A stretch of 13,009 bases of DNA, taken from the UHGV virus genome UHGV-1799913, one strand, 5' to 3'. The stretch comes from a virus. Shown one piece after another: positions 3,500 through 12,302 of this stretch. Numbering within the stretch: position 1 is the stretch's first letter; each line of letters starts with the position of its first letter. The notes under the pieces were generated by a model. That model had not been told where the DNA came from and did not search any database. It saw only the letters and a program-made list of their open reading frames with translations. Position numbers and translations under genes: made by a program.

Positions 3500-3709
3500 T
3501 TAGTGCTGGATAGGGTTGCCGTGACCGTCAAGAAGGACGTCAATCACGCAGTCACTGAGTCGGATTATTTCTGCGTCAGTGTGCAGGTATACCCATTTGC
3601 GCTCCTGAATGACTGCTGAGACGCGATATGTGCGGCCTTCATGCAATGCCATCATGCCGGGCGTGACGCACTGGCGAATGAGCGGGGTGGTGCCGTAGTG
3701 GTTGATCAT
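3500..3709 (-). CDS. hypothetical small phage protein (69 aa)
   Basis: Track ORF; GAGGTGAAGG RBS before the ATG at 3709; ATGA overlap with the upstream gene stop. No family recognised. Confidence 0.5.
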   Translation of the reverse strand: MINHYGTTPLIRQCVTPGMMALHEGRTYRVSAVIQERKWVYLHTDAEIIRLSDCVIDVLLDGHGNPIQH

Positions 3710-4232: not shown

Positions 4233-4383
4233 ATGTGTTTCGCTTAATCATTGGGTAAGCCAGAGCAATTACACCTGCCACTAATACCCCGTCAGCCAGC
4301 ATCGACATCAACTTCCCGGTGAAATCGACAGCAATCACCAGGAAGAGGAGGACGCCGATAATCAACCAGCGCAATTTATCCAT
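4231..4383 (-). CDS. small hydrophobic membrane peptide (50 aa)
   Basis: Hand-translated minus-strand ORF MDKLRWLIIGVLLFLVIAVDFTGKLMSMLADGVLVAGVIALAYPMIKRNT, below the track cutoff. Its ATG overlaps the TerB-like stop (ATGA); strongly hydrophobic; followed by a terminator. Confidence 0.4.
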   Translation of the reverse strand: MDKLRWLIIGVLLFLVIAVDFTGKLMSMLADGVLVAGVIALAYPMIKRNT

Positions 4384-4808
4384 CAGATATAAGCGTCGAG
4401 TGATAACTGAAGAGCCTGAGCGATTTTCTTCAGCTGTTTTTCTTCGTCTTCGCCGATGCCGTCGTTATCGGCTACGTCAAGGCACAGGCAGAGCACATCA
4501 ACTGCGTCTGGAGTATCTGCCACATCTGCAAGTTCGCGCATTGCCTGGGCATTAGCAGAGCGAGGGGACGCTTCGTACTGTGCGCGAATGTTGCTGCTCA
4601 TGATGGCGATCTCACCTGCGAAAGCAGAGAACGCTGGTTTTGCCTGAATGGTTTTCTCCAGCGTTGCAATTTCTGACGCATCACAAGTACCGTCTGCATA
4701 AGCGATCGAGTAACAGCCCCACACCGTTGCTTCAACTGCGTCGCGGTTTTCCATCTTCTTCACTTCGACGATCGCCTTGCGTGCTTTTTTCTTAAACAGT
4801 CCGAACAT
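4383..4808 (-). CDS. TerB-family (tellurite-resistance TerB-like) protein, 141 aa
   Basis: Two ADG/acidic repeats (AYADGTCDASEIATLEK and DVADNDGIGEDEEKQLKKIAQAL) and an MFGLFKK N-terminus resemble E. coli TerB (MSFFDKVK...VASDGVSSEEK...AKSDGNFDDDEK, recalled). AAGAGGG RBS before the ATG at 4808. First sizeable gene downstream of the presumed pL. Confidence 0.55.
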   Translation of the reverse strand: MFGLFKKKARKAIVEVKKMENRDAVEATVWGCYSIAYADGTCDASEIATLEKTIQAKPAFSAFAGEIAIMSSNIRAQYEASPRSANAQAMRELADVADTPDAVDVLCLCLDVADNDGIGEDEEKQLKKIAQALQLSLDAYI

Positions 4809-5035
4809 TTGACTACCCTCTTGGTTTAAGCCATCAACTTGATGGCGACATTTGACTTACCGTCAGCCCCTCGTAAAGAGCTGCTGGTAAATCGTGTTGC
4901 CATAATTGCCGCTCCTCCTGAGCCCGCCTATGGTCCGACGCATGGTTTACTGTCGCGCCGTTCGACTGACCGAATCTCCACTTCGCTGCTGGCTAACTTC
5001 GCTCAGCTGTCGATGTTTCGTTTCGATGGGGTGAA

Positions 5036-5110
5036 TTTAGCGTGATGCTAAATTATGCGCAATAGCAAAATGCTAAATTGTTGAATGGTTTTATTTAGCG
5101 TATTGATTAA
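5036..5110. promoter_or_regulatory. OL-like operator cluster / presumed pL region
   Basis: Three 17-mers matching TTTAGC-N5-GCTAAA: 5036-5052 tttagcgtgatgctaaa (perfect half-sites), 5061-5077 aatagcaaaatgctaaa, 5094-5110 tttagcgtattgattaa. Lies between the cI terminator and the leftward operon. Confidence 0.45.
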
Positions 5111-5149
5111 TAAGCGATTAAAAATTTACAGCGAAGGAATTCGGGACGT

Positions 5150-5173
5150 AAAAAAGCCCGCGCGATGGCGGGC
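5150..5173 (-). terminator. putative rho-independent terminator downstream of the repressor gene
   Basis: Minus strand: GCCCGC-CATCGC-GCGGGC stem-loop followed by TTTTTT (plus A-run 5150-5155), about 20 nt after the cI stop. Confidence 0.5.
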
Positions 5174-5193
5174 TTGAGGGGTTTTGCGTGAGG

Positions 5194-5871
5194 TTATGGG
5201 ATGTTTAGTATTTTGGCATCAACCACAACGCCGATGATTTTGCAGTTTCCATTAATTTCTAGCATTGGATATGCGGGGTTAAGGGGCTTTAGGAAGCGTC
5301 TGCCGGCATCGATTACAAGCTTCTTAAAGGTCGCTTCGTTATCGCCTTCTAGCTTCGCGACAACCAGCTTTCCGTTGCGCGGCTCGACTTCAGGATCAAC
5401 AAGTATCGCTGCTCCCTCGGGTATGCTCAGTCCAGCCGGGGAGGTCATAGAATCCCCTTTAACGTCCAGCCAGAATGAATCTTCTGAGCAGTCAACAGTC
5501 GTGTCATACCAGCGATCTATCGCTCTTCGGTGATAAGGTTCTACAGCTTCCATCCATTGCCCCGCGCTTACCCAGCTGATTACAGGATAACTTCCTTTTG
5601 TCTCGTTCAGTCCTCGAAATGAAACGTTCGAAGGTTCTTCACTGGCGTGTAAAACATCCATCCAGCCAAAAGGCAGATCAAGCGCAGTTTCAATTTTGCG
5701 AGCCATCTTATCGCCGATATTGCGATGAGGGTTTGGTCCCAGTAGCTGGCTAAGCGCAGCCGGACTTGTCTCGATGAGCTCGGCAAACTGCGCTTTGGTC
5801 ATTCCAGACTCGTGCTGACGCTTCTCGTACAGCGCTTCCAGGTTGGCTTTTCTGATTTCTTTATTTTCCAT
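5194..5871 (-). CDS. cI: CI-like prophage repressor, LexA/S24 peptidase family (HTH plus autocleavage domain)
   Basis: From ATG 5871: MENKEIRKANLEALYEKRQHESGMTKAQFAELIETSPAALSQLLG (HTH), an Ala-Gly linker site (WVSAGQW), and a C-terminal S24 domain with GDSM (Ser) and a downstream Lys (VVAKLEG). Divergent to the cro-like gene and flanked by operator-like repeats. The track start at 5988 is a TTG inside the operator region and is rejected. Confidence 0.8.
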   Translation of the reverse strand: MENKEIRKANLEALYEKRQHESGMTKAQFAELIETSPAALSQLLGPNPHRNIGDKMARKIETALDLPFGWMDVLHASEEPSNVSFRGLNETKGSYPVISWVSAGQWMEAVEPYHRRAIDRWYDTTVDCSEDSFWLDVKGDSMTSPAGLSIPEGAAILVDPEVEPRNGKLVVAKLEGDNEATFKKLVIDAGRRFLKPLNPAYPMLEINGNCKIIGVVVDAKILNIP

Positions 5872-5889
5872 ACCTGCATTGTTACTGCT

Positions 5890-5955
5890 TTTAGCAAAAT
5901 GATAAATGTGCAAATTGCTAAATGATGCTTGCGTAGTATTTAGCATAACGCTAAA
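5890..5955. promoter_or_regulatory. OR-like operator cluster with divergent promoters (pRM/pR equivalents)
   Basis: 17-mers 5939-5955 tttagcataacgctaaa (perfect inverted repeat TTTAGC-N5-GCTAAA) and 5890-5906 tttagcaaaatgataaa, plus a weaker one around 5906-5922, in the 116-bp gap between the divergent cI and cro-like starts. Confidence 0.5.
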
Positions 5956-5987
5956 CTCCAAATCAAACGACTCACCCGGAGACACCA

Positions 5988-6221
5988 ATGAGCACTGAAC
6001 TACACCGCTGGCGCAAGGCCGCCACTACCGACGAATGGGCGCAGCTCGCAAAGTTGGCTAACACGACGCCAGGTTACCTGGACCAGATCGCCTACGGAAA
6101 TCGCCGGGCATCTCCAGAAATGGCATCTGCTATCGAGAAAGGCACGAAGAATTTTCACCGCCAGGCTCCGGTCCTAAAAGAAAGCCTGGTATTCGCATCG
6201 CCGCGTGATACTGCGGCCTAA
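5988..6221 (+). CDS. Cro-like small HTH DNA-binding protein (first gene of the rightward operon)
   Basis: 77 aa; GGAG 6 nt before the ATG; HTH-like segment DEWAQLAKLANTTPGYLDQIAYGNRRASPEMASAIEKGT; divergent from cI across the operator region. Confidence 0.6.
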   Translation: MSTELHRWRKAATTDEWAQLAKLANTTPGYLDQIAYGNRRASPEMASAIEKGTKNFHRQAPVLKESLVFASPRDTAA

Positions 6222-6238
6222 CCACGAAAGGGAAAGCA

Positions 6239-6784
6239 ATGCATTCACTTGCGTATCAACAAGGTAACAAATTTTCGCCAACGGCGATGATTTACCAGAA
6301 TCGCCGGGAGCCTGATTCCACGGCGTTAAACATCGATGGGATCCGCGCAGCTGTTCGCGCCTGGGCAGCTGATTGCCGAAGCCGTGAATTTGTCGCCGCG
6401 CTGATCGTGGAAGAGTGGCGGGCGTCCGGCGGAACCGGTCTGGATATCCCGACTGACTCGCACCGCCAGATGCAGAAAGTGTTTCGATGGATTGATGGTG
6501 ATACCGAATACGCCGCCAACAACATTCGCCAGCTGGCCCCGGCAATCATGTCGGTCCTGCCGCTGGAGTACCGAAACCGTCTGGCGCCGCAGAACGACAC
6601 GATGTCGCTGATCGCCTCTGCGATGAAAGAGTGTGCCGAGGCTAAACAGGCCGTGCTGCTGGACGCTCCAGAGCATCAGAAGCTCAAAGAGGTAAGCGAG
6701 GGTATAGCGTCGCTGTTCCGCCTCATGCCGGAGCAGGTAGGAACGCTGATGACGATGGTTACATCGATGCTGGGGGTTATATGA
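6239..6784 (+). CDS. YdaT-like protein (Rac/CP-933P YdaT family, reported as a CII functional analogue)
   Basis: EEWRASGGTGLDIP...HRQMQKVFRWIDGDTEYAANNIRQLAPAIMSVLPLEYRNRLA parallels E. coli YdaT as I recall it (EEYLRQGGGELPLV...YHRWLKGETKTQREKIQKLIPAILAILPRELRHRL). Lies in the cII position after the cro-like gene. Confidence 0.6.
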   Translation: MHSLAYQQGNKFSPTAMIYQNRREPDSTALNIDGIRAAVRAWAADCRSREFVAALIVEEWRASGGTGLDIPTDSHRQMQKVFRWIDGDTEYAANNIRQLAPAIMSVLPLEYRNRLAPQNDTMSLIASAMKECAEAKQAVLLDAPEHQKLKEVSEGIASLFRLMPEQVGTLMTMVTSMLGVI

Positions 6785-6869
6785 GAGGCACAAGAAAAGA
6801 AAAAGCCCTTGAAGCGGTAACTTCAAAGGCCCTTATCACACTGTGTTACGCCAAGTAACGGGAGTAAGT

Positions 6870-7778
6870 ATGTCAAACACCGCTGAAATAATCAATTTCC
6901 CAAATAAAACCGAACAACCGGGAGGTCGTATGGCCGACCTGTCGAACGGGTATACCAAGGTCGCTAACGAGATCCAACAGCTTAAGCCTCGCCTGAGACT
7001 GTCAGGCCGGGAATGGCAATGTTTTGAGGCGGTGATCTGGCTTACCTACGGCTGGAACAAGAAACAGGACCGCGTGACAAATACGGTTATTGCCGAGCTT
7101 ACGGGCCTGAGCGATACGCATGTATCGGACGCGCTTAAGTCTCTCGCAGAACGCAAAATCATCTTTTCACAGAAGCAGGGCATGATGAAAATCGTCGGTG
7201 TAAACACTGACCTTTCAGCATGGATTTTAGACAAACCGGAAACGGGAAGAAAATTCCCGAAAACGGGAAAATCCTTCCCGAAATCAGGAATAACCTTCCC
7301 GAAAACGGTAGACACCCAATACAAGAACAAGAACAGTATTAAAAGATCTTCGTCCGAGAATTCTGACGAATCCTCTGACGCACGTCTGAAGAAATTTTTA
7401 TCAACTCATCCTGAAGCTGCGGTCTACACACCATCCGGTGCGAAGTGGGGCTCTGCTGAAGACCTCGAGACAGCTAAGTGGATTTCCTCCAGGGTGAAGC
7501 TGATTAACCCAACCTGCAAAGCCCCGGACATGACCTCCTGGTCTAACACTGTTCGCCTGATGCGCCAGATAGACAACCGGTCGCACCAGGACATCTGCGC
7601 GCTGTATGACTGGGCTAGCAAACACCACTTCTGGCAGACCAACATCCTGAGTCCCGAAAGCCTGCGTAAGCAGTGGGACAAGCTGACAATGCAGCGTAAC
7701 GCCGGAGGTGAGCAGCGCGCTGTCAAGCCAGATCTGGACTTCAACAACACTGACTGGGCCTATGGGGTGATCCGATGA
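6870..7778 (+). CDS. O: replication initiator protein O-like
   Basis: Start at ATG 6870 (GGAG RBS) inside track ORF 6843..7778. N-terminus MSNTAEIINF..., the LTYGWNK motif and the C-terminal DLDFNNTDWAYGVI resemble lambda O (MTNTAKILNF..., ...TDW.YG at the C-terminus, recalled). Contains the iteron array; stop overlaps the P start (ATGA). Confidence 0.85.
   Translation: MSNTAEIINFPNKTEQPGGRMADLSNGYTKVANEIQQLKPRLRLSGREWQCFEAVIWLTYGWNKKQDRVTNTVIAELTGLSDTHVSDALKSLAERKIIFSQKQGMMKIVGVNTDLSAWILDKPETGRKFPKTGKSFPKSGITFPKTVDTQYKNKNSIKRSSSENSDESSDARLKKFLSTHPEAAVYTPSGAKWGSAEDLETAKWISSRVKLINPTCKAPDMTSWSNTVRLMRQIDNRSHQDICALYDWASKHHFWQTNILSPESLRKQWDKLTMQRNAGGEQRAVKPDLDFNNTDWAYGVIR
7233..7312. repeat. origin-of-replication iterons (ori-lambda-like) inside the O-like gene
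   Basis: Four repeats of a dyad-containing about 17-bp unit at exact 21-bp spacing (starts 7233, 7254, 7275, 7296): aaaccggaaacgggaag / ttcccgaaaacgggaaa / ttcccgaaatcaggaat / ttcccgaaaacggta. Encodes the in-frame peptide repeat FPKTGK/FPKSG/FPKT, as iterons do in lambda O. Confidence 0.7.
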
Positions 7779-8464
7779 AATCTCTTGCAGAGCAGATGCG
7801 TAACCACGACCGCGAGCAGATGAGCCGCATGGCCCATAACCTGCCAGAGCAGTACCAGGAGTGCGCGCCGGTCGAGCAGGTGGCGCAGGTATTCAACAAG
7901 CTGTTCAACGAGCTGCGCGCCGCGTTCCCGGCCAGCATGGCGAACTTCCGCACCCAGGAAGACCTGAACGAATTCCGCCGTCAGTGGCTGCTGGCGTTTC
8001 AGGAGAACGGGATCCACACCATGGCTCAGGTCGATGCCGGCATGCGCATTGCCCGCCGCCAGGAGCGCCCATTCCTGCCGTCGCCGGGCCAGTTCGTCGC
8101 CTGGTGCAAGCAGAGCGGCGGCGCGCTGGGCGTCAACGTTGACCAGGTGATCGCCGAATACTGGGACTGGCGTAACCGCTCGTTCGAATTCATCTCCAGC
8201 GAGCAATTTCCATGGTCGCAGCCGGTCATGTACCACATTTGCGTAGAATTGCGCCACCGCAGCACCGAGCGCCAGTTAACGCATGGTGAACTGGCACGCG
8301 AGGCAGGCGATCTGCTGGACATGTGGGAAAGGCGCGTCACCGAGGGTAAGCCAGTGCCGCCGGTACGCCGGGCTATTGCCGCACCAGCTGCCGAGCAAGG
8401 GCCGACGCCGATCCAGCTGCTGCTGGCCAAGTACAACCGCAACAAGTCGAACGGGATGGTGTGA
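7775..8464 (+). CDS. P: replication protein P-like (DnaB helicase loader)
   Basis: MKSLAEQMRNHDREQMSRMAHNLPEQY...VEQVAQ...FPAS.AN...E.NE.RRQWLLAFQENGI.TMAQV.AGMRIARRQERPFLPSPGQFVAWCKQ is near-collinear with the lambda P N-terminal half (MKNIAAQMVNFDREQMRRIANNMPEQY...RPFLPSPGQFVAWC, recalled). ATGA overlap with the O stop. Confidence 0.9.
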   Translation: MKSLAEQMRNHDREQMSRMAHNLPEQYQECAPVEQVAQVFNKLFNELRAAFPASMANFRTQEDLNEFRRQWLLAFQENGIHTMAQVDAGMRIARRQERPFLPSPGQFVAWCKQSGGALGVNVDQVIAEYWDWRNRSFEFISSEQFPWSQPVMYHICVELRHRSTERQLTHGELAREAGDLLDMWERRVTEGKPVPPVRRAIAAPAAEQGPTPIQLLLAKYNRNKSNGMV

Positions 8465-8465
8465 C

Positions 8466-8810
8466 ATGAACATAACAATCCGTGAGCAGGTGCTGGCAGC
8501 CCTGCGCAACAACCCAGGGTTGAACAACGCCAAACTGGCAGGGCTTATCGGCATGGACACCAAAAAGATATCCGGAACGGTGAGCACGCTGCTGGCAGAC
8601 GGCCTGATCCGCTGCGAAGGAAAATACGGCCAGCGCCTTTACAGCCTGACCAGCTACGGAATGCGCTTCGCCCCTGACACGATACCTGGCATGAAGCAGG
8701 GTAAGTCGAAGTTAATTCAGCGGACGGACACAAACGTGATCTGCCAGGAGTGCCGCAACAGCGCGGCTATGAAGCGTGTATTGATGGTTTGGGGGAGGGT
8801 AGGGGTATGA
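8466..8810 (+). CDS. small winged-helix-type DNA-binding protein (114 aa), nin-region gene
   Basis: Start at ATG 8466 (MNITIREQVLAALRNNPGLNNAKLAGLIGMDTKKISGTVSTLLADGLIRCEG...) inside track ORF 8283..8810. The helix-turn-wing pattern resembles MarR-like winged-helix proteins; the start sits 2 nt after the P stop. Confidence 0.5.
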   Translation: MNITIREQVLAALRNNPGLNNAKLAGLIGMDTKKISGTVSTLLADGLIRCEGKYGQRLYSLTSYGMRFAPDTIPGMKQGKSKLIQRTDTNVICQECRNSAAMKRVLMVWGRVGV

Positions 8811-9403
8811 AATTATTTGAGATGGAAGGTTTTCTGCGTGGCAAGTGCATTCCACGCGATCTGAAGGTTAACGAAACCAACGCCGAGTATCTTGTGCGTA
8901 AATTTGCTGAAGCGGAGGCAAAGTGCGCGGCGCTGGCAGCGGAGAATGCGGAGCTGAAACACGCAATGGCCGTAACTCTTGAGCATGTGTCGGTCACGGA
9001 TGCAGGGCAGGCTGGTGTTGCTGCAATGATTATCAACGATGCCCTACACCACAGCGAAACCCCAGCCACCGACGCTTTCCTTGCTGAAGTACTGGCGCAG
9101 GGGGTGAAATCGCCATCCAATGCCGTTCAGTCAGTAATTGCAGAGCGTCAACGCCATCAATCAGCTGAGGGATGGACGCCTGAGCATGATGACCAGTACA
9201 GCAAATCGCAGTTACTGTGGGCATCCTCATGCTACGTACTGAATGCCATCCATCCATTTAACCGCATTCCATTTGACTGGCCGTGGACACCAGAATGGTG
9301 GAAGCCGACAAATCCACGCCGTGACCTTGTGAAAGCTGGCGCACTTATTCTGGCTGAACTTGAAAGAATTGACCGCGCCGCTGGCATCGGTAAGGGGGAA
9401 TGA
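8807..9403 (+). CDS. phage protein with N-terminal coiled coil and a C-terminal domain resembling DUF550 / dATP-dGTP pyrophosphohydrolase-like proteins
   Basis: Start at ATG 8807 (MKLFEMEGFLRG...) after a G-rich RBS, overlapping the upstream stop. The C-terminal WTPEHDDQYSKSQLLWASSCYVLNAIHPFNRIPFDWPWTPEWW is reminiscent of the DUF550 family common in enterobacterial prophage nin regions; family assignment is from memory only. Confidence 0.45.
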   Translation: MKLFEMEGFLRGKCIPRDLKVNETNAEYLVRKFAEAEAKCAALAAENAELKHAMAVTLEHVSVTDAGQAGVAAMIINDALHHSETPATDAFLAEVLAQGVKSPSNAVQSVIAERQRHQSAEGWTPEHDDQYSKSQLLWASSCYVLNAIHPFNRIPFDWPWTPEWWKPTNPRRDLVKAGALILAELERIDRAAGIGKGE

Positions 9404-10447: not shown

Positions 10448-10539
10448 AATAGGGTGCGGGGTTCGAACCCGCGGTACGGGTTTATAGCCCGTACGCCTCA
10501 TTATCAGTGAGGTGCCATCAACCACTCGGCCAACCCTCC
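10448..10539 (-). tRNA. tRNA-like element, type II (long variable arm), anticodon GAU by fold; imperfect acceptor stem, no encoded CCA; possible pseudogene or non-canonical phage tRNA
   Basis: Minus strand GGAGGGT-TG-GCC-GAGTGGTTGAT-GGC-A-CCTCA-CTGATAA-TGAGG-CGTACGGGCTATAAACCCGTACC-GCGGG-TTCGAAC-CCCGC-ACCCTAT. Cloverleaf has a canonical T-arm (GGTTCGAAC) and Ser/Leu-like D-loop (GCCGAGTGGTTGA), a 7-bp variable-arm hairpin, and a 5-bp anticodon stem with loop CU-GAU-AA. The acceptor has a G2-A71 mismatch and a G1-U72 pair. Confidence 0.5.
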
Positions 10540-11198: not shown

Positions 11199-11381
11199 AT
11201 GTCAAACGAAGAAATGACACCTGCCGAAAAATACAAAGCGGCGAGGAAGCGATATAAAAAACACTGGCTTCAATCCGATATAGCAAACGCTAAGCGCTTT
11301 GAGGCTGATGATGTGGCCCCTGTAGATGGTTACAGGTCTCCTTACGAAACGAGGAAAAAAAGAGGGAGAACAGCAGATTAA
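11199..11381 (+). CDS. small basic protein (60 aa), first gene of the moron cassette
   Basis: Start at ATG 11199 inside track ORF 11136..11381: [25 protein letters not shown]...RKKRGRTAD, Lys/Arg-rich. Stop overlaps the next start (TAATG). Confidence 0.45.
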
Positions 11382-11635
11382 TGTCACATTTTAATATCGC
11401 AGAAAAATCGAAAGAAGAGCAGGACAAGGCTAACGTGGACCTGGCTGCCAGTGGCGTAGCGTACAAAGAGCGCCTGAACATGCCGGTTATCGCTGAGGTG
11501 GTGATGCGTGAGCAGCCCGAGCATTTGCGTGATTACTTCCTTGAGCGTCTGAAGTTTTATCGCGAGAAGTCGATAGATTTACCAAGGGCATCCGATCCGC
11601 GGTACATGGAAATGGCTGATTCTAATAAAAAATAA
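11381..11635 (+). CDS. hypothetical protein (84 aa)
   Basis: Track ORF; start coupled to the upstream stop. No family recognised. Confidence 0.5.
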
Positions 11636-12226: not shown

Positions 12227-12302
12227 TTACTGCGCTTTGATTTTTCATAATCACTCCGCCATAATCATGTCATCGGAGCCTGAACAACTCCGGTGACTTC
12301 TT

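Follow-up and report, generated by a model that had tools for sequence, protein, structure and literature searches.

In the lambdoid phages phi80, HK225 and HK639, the CI repressor is of the S24 type and CII belongs to family PF06254, and the same pairing is found in 4A7. The CII protein of phi80 is homologous to YdaT (PMC8630535), and YdaT binds the sequence (T/A)TGATT-N6-AATCAA and activates a PRE-like reverse promoter; this activation of an antisense establishment promoter has been demonstrated for the YdaT homologues of CP-933P and Rac (PMC8630535, PMC9986795, PMC11879457). Residues H56/R57 are critical in Rac YdaT (PMC11879457), and the recognition helix varies within the YdaT family (PMC9986795). 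The initial annotation of the DNA studied here stated that YdaT proteins are reported to be functional analogues of CII and toxic when overexpressed, and both statements are documented in the literature (PMC8630535, PMC9986795, PMC11879457, PMC5917428).

We analyzed a 13,009-nucleotide stretch of the virus genome UHGV-1799913, hereafter the window, and we conclude with high confidence that its region 5194-6784 is the immunity and decision module of a phi80/HK225-type lambdoid E. coli prophage that appears to be intact, and that the module most likely operates as in lambda. Annotated E. coli chromosomes contain the region with 100% identity, inside an apparently complete prophage, and carriers include strains MLI104K1 and EM18-18-42. 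Its exact CI/CII combination occurs in 19 of 5426 complete E. coli genomes. The three genes named by the initial annotation, encoding CI, a Cro-like protein and a YdaT-like protein, are all found where it had placed them. The annotations of the element also include a truncated Q-family pseudogene and one other pseudogene.

A switch that no longer serves phage development, in a domesticated or non-inducible prophage whose CI and CII function chiefly as regulators embedded in the host (as in Rac and CP-933P), would be in keeping with these pseudogenes and with the fact that the best-studied YdaT proteins come from cryptic prophages, Rac YdaT regulating the host gene rcsA (PMC11879457). We consider this unlikely, however: the early genes of the window are all intact ORFs, and the surrounding prophage encodes integrase, full-length Q, lysis, terminase/packaging, capsid/head and tail genes. 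Moreover, the same cII cassette is found in the viable phages HK225, HK639 and phi80, and the Klebsiella phage KO-TP1 (PQ571297), which has a closely related immunity module, was obtained by induction.

The gene for the repressor, cI, lies at 5194-5871 on the minus strand and encodes a 225-residue protein in which an N-terminal HTH precedes an S24 autopeptidase domain at the C-terminus. Its ORF as listed by program extends over 5194-5988 (-) from a TTG start, and RefSeq/PGAP places the start at 5946; the true start is likely the ATG at 5871. The alignment with the N-terminal domain of lambda CI begins at residue 10. Residues 96-217 match PF00717 (Peptidase_S24) with 102.2 bits (cut-off 23.3; E 1.9e-29), the match to HTH_3 is borderline at 22.9 bits, just below the 23-bit Pfam cut-off, and phrog_4 is matched with E 1e-49. 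CI aligns with lambda CI (3bdn) with E 2.5e-32, and structures of the lambda CI C-terminal domain match it with E 1e-30. In the 3bdn alignment, the cleavage site VSAGQW corresponds to lambda VQAGMF (A103-G104 to A111-G112), the serine motif GDSM to GNSM (S141 to S149), and the lysine motif TFKKL to the identical lambda TFKKL (K183 to K192). Judged by its domain, catalytic dyad and scissile bond, CI is a LexA/lambda-type S24 self-cleaving repressor, which bears out the earlier description of a full-length S24 protein with an Ala-Gly site, Ser and Lys. The conserved residues suggest that RecA*-stimulated autocleavage of CI would make the prophage SOS-inducible, and KO-TP1, whose CI is 96% identical and whose recorded source is "antibiotic induction," lends circumstantial support. 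An intrinsic terminator, with an 8-bp stem containing 6 GC pairs followed by a T run, is located 3' of cI at 5154-5175 (-).

The repressor gene is flanked by two clusters of 17-bp palindromes of the form TTTAGC-N5-GCTAAA. The OL cluster (5036-5110) comprises 5036-5052 with no mismatches and 5061-5077 and 5094-5110 with two each, while OR (5890-5955) comprises 5890-5906 with one mismatch, a weak site at 5906-5922 with three, and the perfect site 5939-5955. All matches in the window with at most two mismatches fall inside OL or OR, and the six palindromic sites are predicted to be the cognate CI operators.

A strict sigma-70 consensus scan of 4700-7000 gave no matches, and the promoters proposed here come from a looser sigma-70 scan. 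Candidate PL (5034-5062, -) has a -35 element TTGCGC at 5062-5057, a 17-nt spacer and a -10 element TAAATT at 5039-5034. Candidate PR (5929-5957, +), with TTGCGT at 5929-5934 and TAAACT at 5952-5957, overlaps the perfect operator 5939-5955. PL and PR are mirror images of each other, as 5033-5062 and 5929-5958 form a 30-nt inverted repeat that is 83% complementary. Candidate PRM (5878-5905, -) consists of TTATCA at 5905-5900 and AACAAT at 5883-5878; its -10 element is 7 nt upstream of the ATG at 5871, placing the predicted transcription start at or adjoining this codon. By analogy with lambda PRM and with the paaR2 mRNA, which is leaderless (PMC8630535), the cI mRNA from PRM is probably leaderless.

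Downstream of PL, a put-like leader at 4856-4960 (-) shares about 97% identity with the pL leader of HK639 (HM208537, 34187-34312). The same level of identity, about 97%, extends over 4856-5030 to the HK639 leader bearing an annotated "putL-like antiterminator RNA," and the put assignment derives solely from this GenBank feature of HK639. The PL leader folds better than shuffled sequences (z -3.5). The interval from PL to the TerB-family gene at 4383-4808, the first leftward gene, contained no N-like ORF; no second, putR-like copy of the leader was found in 4800-9000, and an Rfam search of the immunity region returned no matches, with M3 and put RNAs not detected there.

On the rightward arm, the Cro-like HTH anticipated by the initial annotation is a 77-residue protein encoded at 5988-6221 (+). 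Its sole family match is phrog_35 "transcriptional repressor" (E 7.5e-8); Pfam gives sub-cut-off scores of 18.2 bits for HTH_3 (cut-off 23) and 13.3 bits for YdaS_toxin (cut-off 30), and an NCBIfam search gave no match. Its size, the HTH hint and its position point to a Cro role. This Cro always co-occurs with this type of CI; the window and KO-TP1 fall in the same CI cluster and the same Cro cluster, each of 15 members.

The next gene, at 6239-6784 (+), encodes a 181-residue protein of the YdaT family, which we designate cII. It follows cro and precedes the replication genes, reading rightward from PR, as in phi80, HK225, HK639, 4A7 and mEp237. The profile search proposed by the initial annotation was positive: the protein matches PF06254 with 95.9 bits (cut-off 21; E 2e-27) and, over its full length, phrog_163 "CII-like transcriptional activator" with E 1.6e-55, so that a YdaT-like protein indeed fills the cII slot. 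It is also correct that this is not a lambda-type CII, since no lambda CII family was matched: Phage_CII gave no match in Pfam at an E limit of 0.1, and only YdaT_toxin and a weak AbiEi_3 were reported. The YdaT structures 8bt1/3c4r are matched with E ~1e-5 by the single sequence and with E 4.6e-10 by the family profile (8bt1), these PDB matches being confined to the N-terminal, POU-like DNA-binding domain. There, DSHRQMQKVFRW aligns with YdaT "DSH...RNTQKIFRW," and the His-Arg of the recognition helix (alpha3) is present as H75-R76. Protein identity is 99% to HK225, 97% to HK639 and 65% to phi80, and DNA identity is 98.9% to HK225 and about 92% to HK639 and phi80. A single-sequence AlphaFold2 model is all-helical, with long helices at 119-179, and is poor (mean pLDDT 45.9).

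Despite being labeled "toxin YdaT family protein" in RefSeq, and despite the Pfam family name "Bacterial toxin ydaT," this gene together with 5988-6221 is most improbably a YdaS/YdaT toxin-antitoxin module in place of a pair of regulators. Expression of Rac YdaT does lead to filamentation and death (PMC11879457), but the protein is a DNA-binding tetramer whose toxicity arises through rcsA regulation (PMC11879457), whereas the YdaT of CP-933P is non-toxic and activates a PRE-like promoter (PMC8630535), and Jobling attributed the toxin label to a misreading of genetic context (PMC5917428). At this locus, the two genes occupy the cro and cII slots exactly, between cI and O, and the upstream protein stays below the YdaS_toxin cut-off. 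A CII-type regulator of lysogeny is thus the annotation that we prefer for 6239-6784.

A region spanning the end of cro and the start of cII marks a module junction (6200-6261, +), which includes a small GC hairpin (GCCGC-N8-GCGGC, 6200-6217), the cro stop codon, the ribosome-binding site and the first 8 cII codons. Within it, 6213-6261 is nearly invariant across phages with unrelated cro genes. We considered this island as a family-wide CII/PRE DNA element and rejected it, since wobble positions differ in the distant cII loci used for the comparison (4A7, mEp237, ST974phi18.2, PHB10 and Kpn_R1). The peptide M-Q/H-S-L-S/A-Y-Q-Q is kept in these loci although the wobble positions vary; the island is therefore better accounted for by a recent shared junction plus protein-level constraint, and the kept N-terminal peptide supports 6239, not Met17, as the cII start.

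The junction is also where the relatives of the module change. KO-TP1 is the closest relative of the cI-OR-cro block (about 85-90% DNA identity) and HK225 that of the cII-O-P block (97-99%), with a sharp transition near 6210. These differing closest relatives would fit an unusual, newly assembled hybrid switch, combining a LexA-type CI with a YdaT-type CII and having properties unlike those of known lambdoid switches, and the initial annotation had likewise proposed a "mixed" or mosaic switch. Such a hybrid is very unlikely, and the proposal of a mosaic is not supported in the sense of anything out of the ordinary. A divergent S24 repressor stands next to the cII cassette in 84 of 84 related loci with enough upstream DNA, and these loci comprise 9 CI clusters and 9 Cro clusters for one cII cassette. 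The repressors were found by a four-seed HMM in 84 of 85 loci, the remaining locus having 274 bp upstream; a single-sequence phmmer search with the C-terminal domain of the window CI, which was set aside, recovered 38 of 85 and missed phi80-type repressors. Together with the S24 CI and PF06254 CII of phi80 and HK225, this survey already largely refutes the hybrid reading; HK639 and 4A7 share the pairing as well, the exact combination recurs among complete E. coli genomes as given above, and in KO-TP1 the CI and Cro occur with a phi80-like CII N-terminal domain. The combination of an S24-type CI and a YdaT-type CII is therefore the normal pairing for phi80-like phages, and the module is ordinary and already known. 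It is recombinant only in the usual lambdoid sense: a distinct KO-TP1-type cI-OR-cro cassette meets the widespread HK225-type cII-M3-O-P cassette at the conserved junction, at the cro stop codon.

Beyond cII, a homologue of the phi80 M3 RNA, the counterpart of lambda oop, lies at 6800-6859 (-), as identified from the phi80 annotation and alignment. It has a terminator stem at 6834-6801 and a candidate promoter with its -35 at 6895-6890 and its -10 at 6872-6867, and it differs from phi80 M3 by one mismatch. The O-like (6870-7778, +) and P-like (7775-8464, +) genes follow, each with about 97% DNA identity to HK225 and phi80.

The published YdaT boxes (PMC11879457, PMC9986795) offer a guide to where CII might act. 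A candidate box, ATGATTTACCAGAATCGC, is located at 6287-6304, within cII codons 17-22, and 10 of its 12 positions agree with the Rac box ATGATT-N6-AATCAA. Only this comparison, together with that across homologues, made the site interesting. The loose sigma-70 scan places a weak leftward promoter-like site here (-), with its -35 (6298-6293) lying inside the box and its -10, GAAAAT, falling at 6276-6271. In 9 of 10 diverse cII loci, no match within +/-300 bp is better than the box, which is always at offset +48, and this conserved position may result partly from conserved codons (Met-Ile). Rac-box-like matches in the window are not above chance (3 found against 1.35 expected). The CP-933P operator TTGATT-N6-AATCAA, allowing at most three mismatches, was discarded as a query because its count was at chance level (6 found against 5.8 expected). 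Because the recognition helix varies within the family, the true CII operator could differ from the candidate. We therefore offer only as a tentative proposal, possible but short of probable, that in phi80-type phages the YdaT-type CII operator lies inside the cII frame (ATGATT-N6-AATCGC, 6287-6304), straddling a weak leftward -35, and that another box-like site, located upstream of ninB at 12237-12254, might mark a further CII-dependent promoter. If this is true, the geometry of box and promoter converges on that of lambda PRE despite an unrelated CII protein, and the YdaT-box model of Rac and CP-933P extends to viable phi80-like phages.

Taken as a lambda-like switch, the module would operate as follows. 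CI dimers on OR and OL would keep the prophage silent and autoregulate the probably leaderless PRM. Upon DNA damage, active RecA would promote CI cleavage at Ala103-Gly104, derepressing PL and PR. After infection, a tetrameric YdaT-type CII would bind an inverted repeat in or close to the beginning of its own gene, for which 6287-6304 is the candidate. It would then turn on a leftward establishment promoter whose antisense transcript would cross cro and enter cI; the candidate sites put the start of this transcript near 6264 or near 6144. CII would presumably be restrained by M3 RNA and host proteolysis.

The main value of this analysis lies in correct annotation, as the RefSeq "toxin" here is a CII-type lysogeny regulator of a phage. 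It also yields an explicit map of operators and promoters for an uncharacterized immunity type common to E. coli prophages and the Klebsiella phage KO-TP1, describes one cII-M3-O-P cassette joined to at least 9 immunity types at a single conserved junction, and provides a candidate CII operator open to testing.

Among known systems, phi80 (JX871397; cI, gene 30/cro, cII, M3 RNA, genes 15/14) matches the window in gene order and orientation. Its operators, pRM, pR and M3 RNA are annotated, and its OL and OR are tripartite as here. Its O/P-like genes share about 97% DNA identity with those of the window; its CII is nearly identical to the window CII in the C-terminal half but only about 50% identical in the N-terminal, DNA-binding half. 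The CI and Cro of phi80 are unrelated in sequence (CI BLASTP E 0.04), so the immunity specificity differs, and phi80 has an N gene and nutL, whereas the window prophage has an HK639-type put-like leader. HK225 and HK639 resemble the window in the cro-cII junction, the M3-like RNA and the S24 repressors, and HK225 in the O/P genes too, but their cI, operators and cro are of other immunity types. KO-TP1 is of the same immunity type, with its 96% identical CI, a Cro of the same cluster, and 84.6-89.6% DNA identity across window 4984-6900; it differs in its phi80-like CII N-terminal domain (CII 67% identical overall to the window CII), the hairpin sequence at the M3 position, the replication genes and the host genus.

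The CP-933P PaaR2-YdaS-YdaT and Rac RacR-YdaS-YdaT modules also place a YdaT-family protein in the cII position, with a homologous DNA-binding domain, and in their published mechanism a (T/A)TGATT-N6-AATCAA box located where ydaT begins serves to activate a leftward promoter. In contrast to the present module, these elements are cryptic, and their repressors are short HTH proteins that lack the S24 domain. Their YdaT is only about 30% identical to the window CII over the N-terminal domain, and the latter is longer by about 17-27 residues at its N-terminus and differs in its C-terminal half, which is of the phi80 type. In lambda, CII belongs to another protein family; unlike lambda, the window region is without rexAB and N, and M3 sits in the cII-O spacer without overlapping the cII coding sequence. 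The lambda CI is nevertheless homologous, with the same cleavage site and catalytic residues, and OL/OR, PRM/PR, cro, cII and an antisense small RNA before O follow the same logic; a CII target within the first part of cII is a further, plausible parallel.

The window corresponds to a lambdoid prophage's early region, whose minus-strand left arm carries, from left to right, exo, bet, gam, a Kil homologue and a TerB-family gene; to the right lie cI on the minus strand and then, on the plus strand, cro-like, cII, O-like, P-like, Ren-like and nin-region genes. E. coli strains MLI104K1 and EM18-18-42 carry positions 5000-7000 in their chromosomes with 100% identity, and among 5426 complete E. coli genomes the window was found at a coverage of at least 80% in 19 and in part in 166. 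The MLI104K1 element, with an integrase adjoining kch at one end and tail-fibre genes at the other, encodes Q, holin/lysozyme/Rz, terminase, portal, capsid and a contractile tail, a gene content that gives it the appearance of a complete prophage.

There are two accessory genes: that for the TerB-family “tellurite resistance” protein (4383-4808, minus strand), which heads the PL operon, and a DNA polymerase III theta-subunit homologue in the nin region (11381-11635, plus strand). The 69-aa product of 3500-3709 (minus strand) is named “cell division protein FtsZ” in RefSeq; since it is a septation inhibitor of the Kil type (phrog_294, E 6.5e-30), this name is an erroneous annotation. The rightward nin region contains, in antisense, a 92-nt tRNA-like gene (10448-10539, minus strand), called as tRNA-Ile with anticodon GAT (Rfam tRNA, 46.4 bits). 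Its body is class II with a long variable arm, and this arm, the D arm and the anticodon stem resemble those of a phage tRNA-Ser. Pairing along the 3' acceptor strand is disrupted (G1-U, G2-A), U occupies the discriminator position and the gene lacks an encoded CCA. Present in only 11 of the 5426 genomes, and 100% identical each time, it may represent a tRNA that has decayed or survives as a remnant, or else an unusual Ser-type tRNA bearing an Ile anticodon.

The S24-type repressor with an Ala-Gly site, Ser and Lys described in the initial annotation is indeed present (cI, 5194-5871, minus strand). Read from the ATG at 5871, CI has 225 aa and contains a Peptidase_S24 domain (E 1.9e-29); its HTH_3 match is borderline. 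An alignment to the whole of lambda CI (E 2.5e-32) pairs the motifs VSAGQW/VQAGMF, GDSM/GNSM and TFKKL/TFKKL, so Ala103-Gly104, Ser141 and Lys183 correspond to lambda A111-G112, S149 and K192. The PGAP start at 5946, 75 nt upstream, falls within the perfect OR operator, the best of the operators. We prefer 5871 to it since transcription from the candidate PRM (-35 at 5905-5900, -10 at 5883-5878) would start at or adjoining it; cI thus likely starts there and would be leaderless, resembling lambda and paaR2 (PMC8630535).

The regulatory map was drawn at the sequence level, with functions inferred. The palindrome TTTAGC-N5-GCTAAA, allowing up to two mismatches, was found only at three OL sites (5036-5052, 5061-5077 and 5094-5110) and two OR sites (5890-5906 and 5939-5955); with a weaker site at 5906-5922, OL and OR are each tripartite. 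A 30-nt inverted repeat, 83% complementary, pairs 5033-5062 with 5929-5958, making the candidate PL (-35 TTGCGC, -10 TAAATT) and PR (-35 TTGCGT, -10 TAAACT) mirror images. An intrinsic terminator lies 3' of cI (5175-5154, minus strand). The leader downstream of the candidate PL (4856-5030, minus strand) shares about 97% identity with the pL leader of HK639, the part that GenBank annotates as “putL-like antiterminator RNA” included, and no N-like gene follows it, the first leftward gene being the TerB-family moron. Together, these features suggest that the left arm uses antitermination mediated by RNA, in the style of HK022/HK639; a search of 4800-9000 found no putR-like copy. Opposite the put-like leader and PL, and overlapping both, a plus-strand “hypothetical protein” is annotated (4842-5045), probably spuriously.

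The proposed rightward arm is also confirmed. The 77-aa Cro-like product of 5988-6221 (plus strand) can be recognized only weakly as an HTH protein, matching phrog_35 (E 7.5e-8) while scoring below the cut-offs for HTH_3 and YdaS_toxin. The YdaT assignment of the next gene (cII, 6239-6784, plus strand) was borne out by profile search, which identifies its 181-aa product as a clear family member (PF06254, E 2e-27). This product also matches phrog_163, “CII-like transcriptional activator,” over its full length (E 1.6e-55) and PDB YdaT 8bt1 (E 2.5e-5 as a single sequence, 4.6e-10 with the family profile), and the domain-profile scan gave no match to the lambda CII family. The protein is a CII-type regulator, for which “toxin” is a misnomer of historical origin.

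The probable mode of action of CII can be read from two published homologues. One, the tetrameric CP-933P YdaT, has a POU-like HTH domain, binds TTGATT-N6-AATCAA near the ydaS/ydaT boundary and turns on a leftward, PRE-like promoter (PMC8630535, PMC9986795). The other, Rac YdaT, targets ATGATTCATGAAAATCAA, overlapping the ydaT start codon, and raises the activity of a reverse promoter within ydaS as much as 29-fold; although they share only 30% identity, the two recognize each other's boxes (PMC11879457). In the window CII, the neighboring His and Arg of this helix for recognition are retained (H75-R76). The best match in its immunity region, ATGATTTACCAGAATCGC at 6287-6304 (10/12 positions), is a candidate CII box. 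The site at this +48 offset is best or joint-best within ±300 bp in 9 of 10 diverse cII loci, scoring 9-11/12; in 4A7 it scores 8/12 and other sites outscore it. Box-like matches in the window are not above chance in number, and Met-Ile codons add to the conservation of this one. The box contains the -35 of a weak leftward promoter-like element, whose -10, GAAAAT, lies at 6276-6271; a second such element lies inside cro (-10 at 6156-6151). Elsewhere, TTGATTTTTCATAATCAC at 12237-12254, in the gap upstream of ninB (12414), matches the published box (W)TGATT-N6-AATCA(W) at 11/12 positions, with 0.14 such matches expected by chance in the window; it may be a coincidence or a second CII target.

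Scanning IMG/VR with the CII alignment yielded 239 relatives, the best 80 of which, with phage loci, formed a set of 85 loci. A divergent S24 repressor, detected with a local S24 profile, lies just upstream of cII in 84 of these; the remaining locus has only 274 bp of upstream sequence. The repressors form nine clusters, as do the intervening Cro proteins, so one cII cassette joins many immunity cassettes, all of which, in this set, are predicted to use a cleavable CI. At this conserved junction, CCTAACCACGAAAGGGAAAGCAATG and the first eight cII codons come, in most loci, after the two final cro codons (Ala-Ala), the stop codon and a small GC hairpin (GCCGC...GCGGC), of which the window carries a variant of its own at 6200-6217. 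Ala-Ala ends the protein in 7 of 9 unrelated Cro clusters because the hairpin begins in those codons, and the stop codon falls within or directly after it (6200-6221 and loci L007-L086). The cro/cII junction looks like a fixed recombination joint where immunity cassettes meet the cII cassette. More distant cII loci vary in this stretch at wobble positions and keep the peptide, which points to a shared recombination junction plus protein constraint rather than to a DNA signal common to the whole family, and which also favors 6239 over Met17 for the cII start.

The closest relative of the cI-OR-cro block is the Klebsiella oxytoca phage KO-TP1 (84.6% DNA identity across 4984-6900; 96% for CI protein). 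From about 6210 rightward identity shifts to 97% with HK225, and from 6533 likewise with phi80. For cII, DNA identity is 98.9% to HK225 and about 92% to HK639 and phi80, and protein identity 99%, 97% and 65% to HK225, HK639 and phi80, respectively. Between cII and O, 6800-6859 (minus strand) matches the M3 RNA annotated in phi80, which is homologous to oop, at all but one base and terminates in a 15-bp hairpin and T run; KO-TP1 has a different hairpin there. Among 64 phage records of the wider YdaT-CII family, some repressors are too short for an S24 domain (mEp237, 155 aa; PHB10, 124 aa), and those of Rac and CP-933P are likewise short; both kinds of pairing therefore exist in nature. The homology of CP-933P YdaT to phi80 CII has already been stated (PMC8630535). 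As a novelty, the mixed-module interpretation falls away: direct scanning of phi80 and HK225 proteins finds CI with Peptidase_S24 and CII with PF06254. phi80 has the same gene order as the window (cI, pRM/OR/pR, gene 30 (cro), cII, M3 RNA, genes 15/14), and the arrangement is a textbook phi80-type immunity region, already sequenced and annotated in phages and RefSeq genomes.
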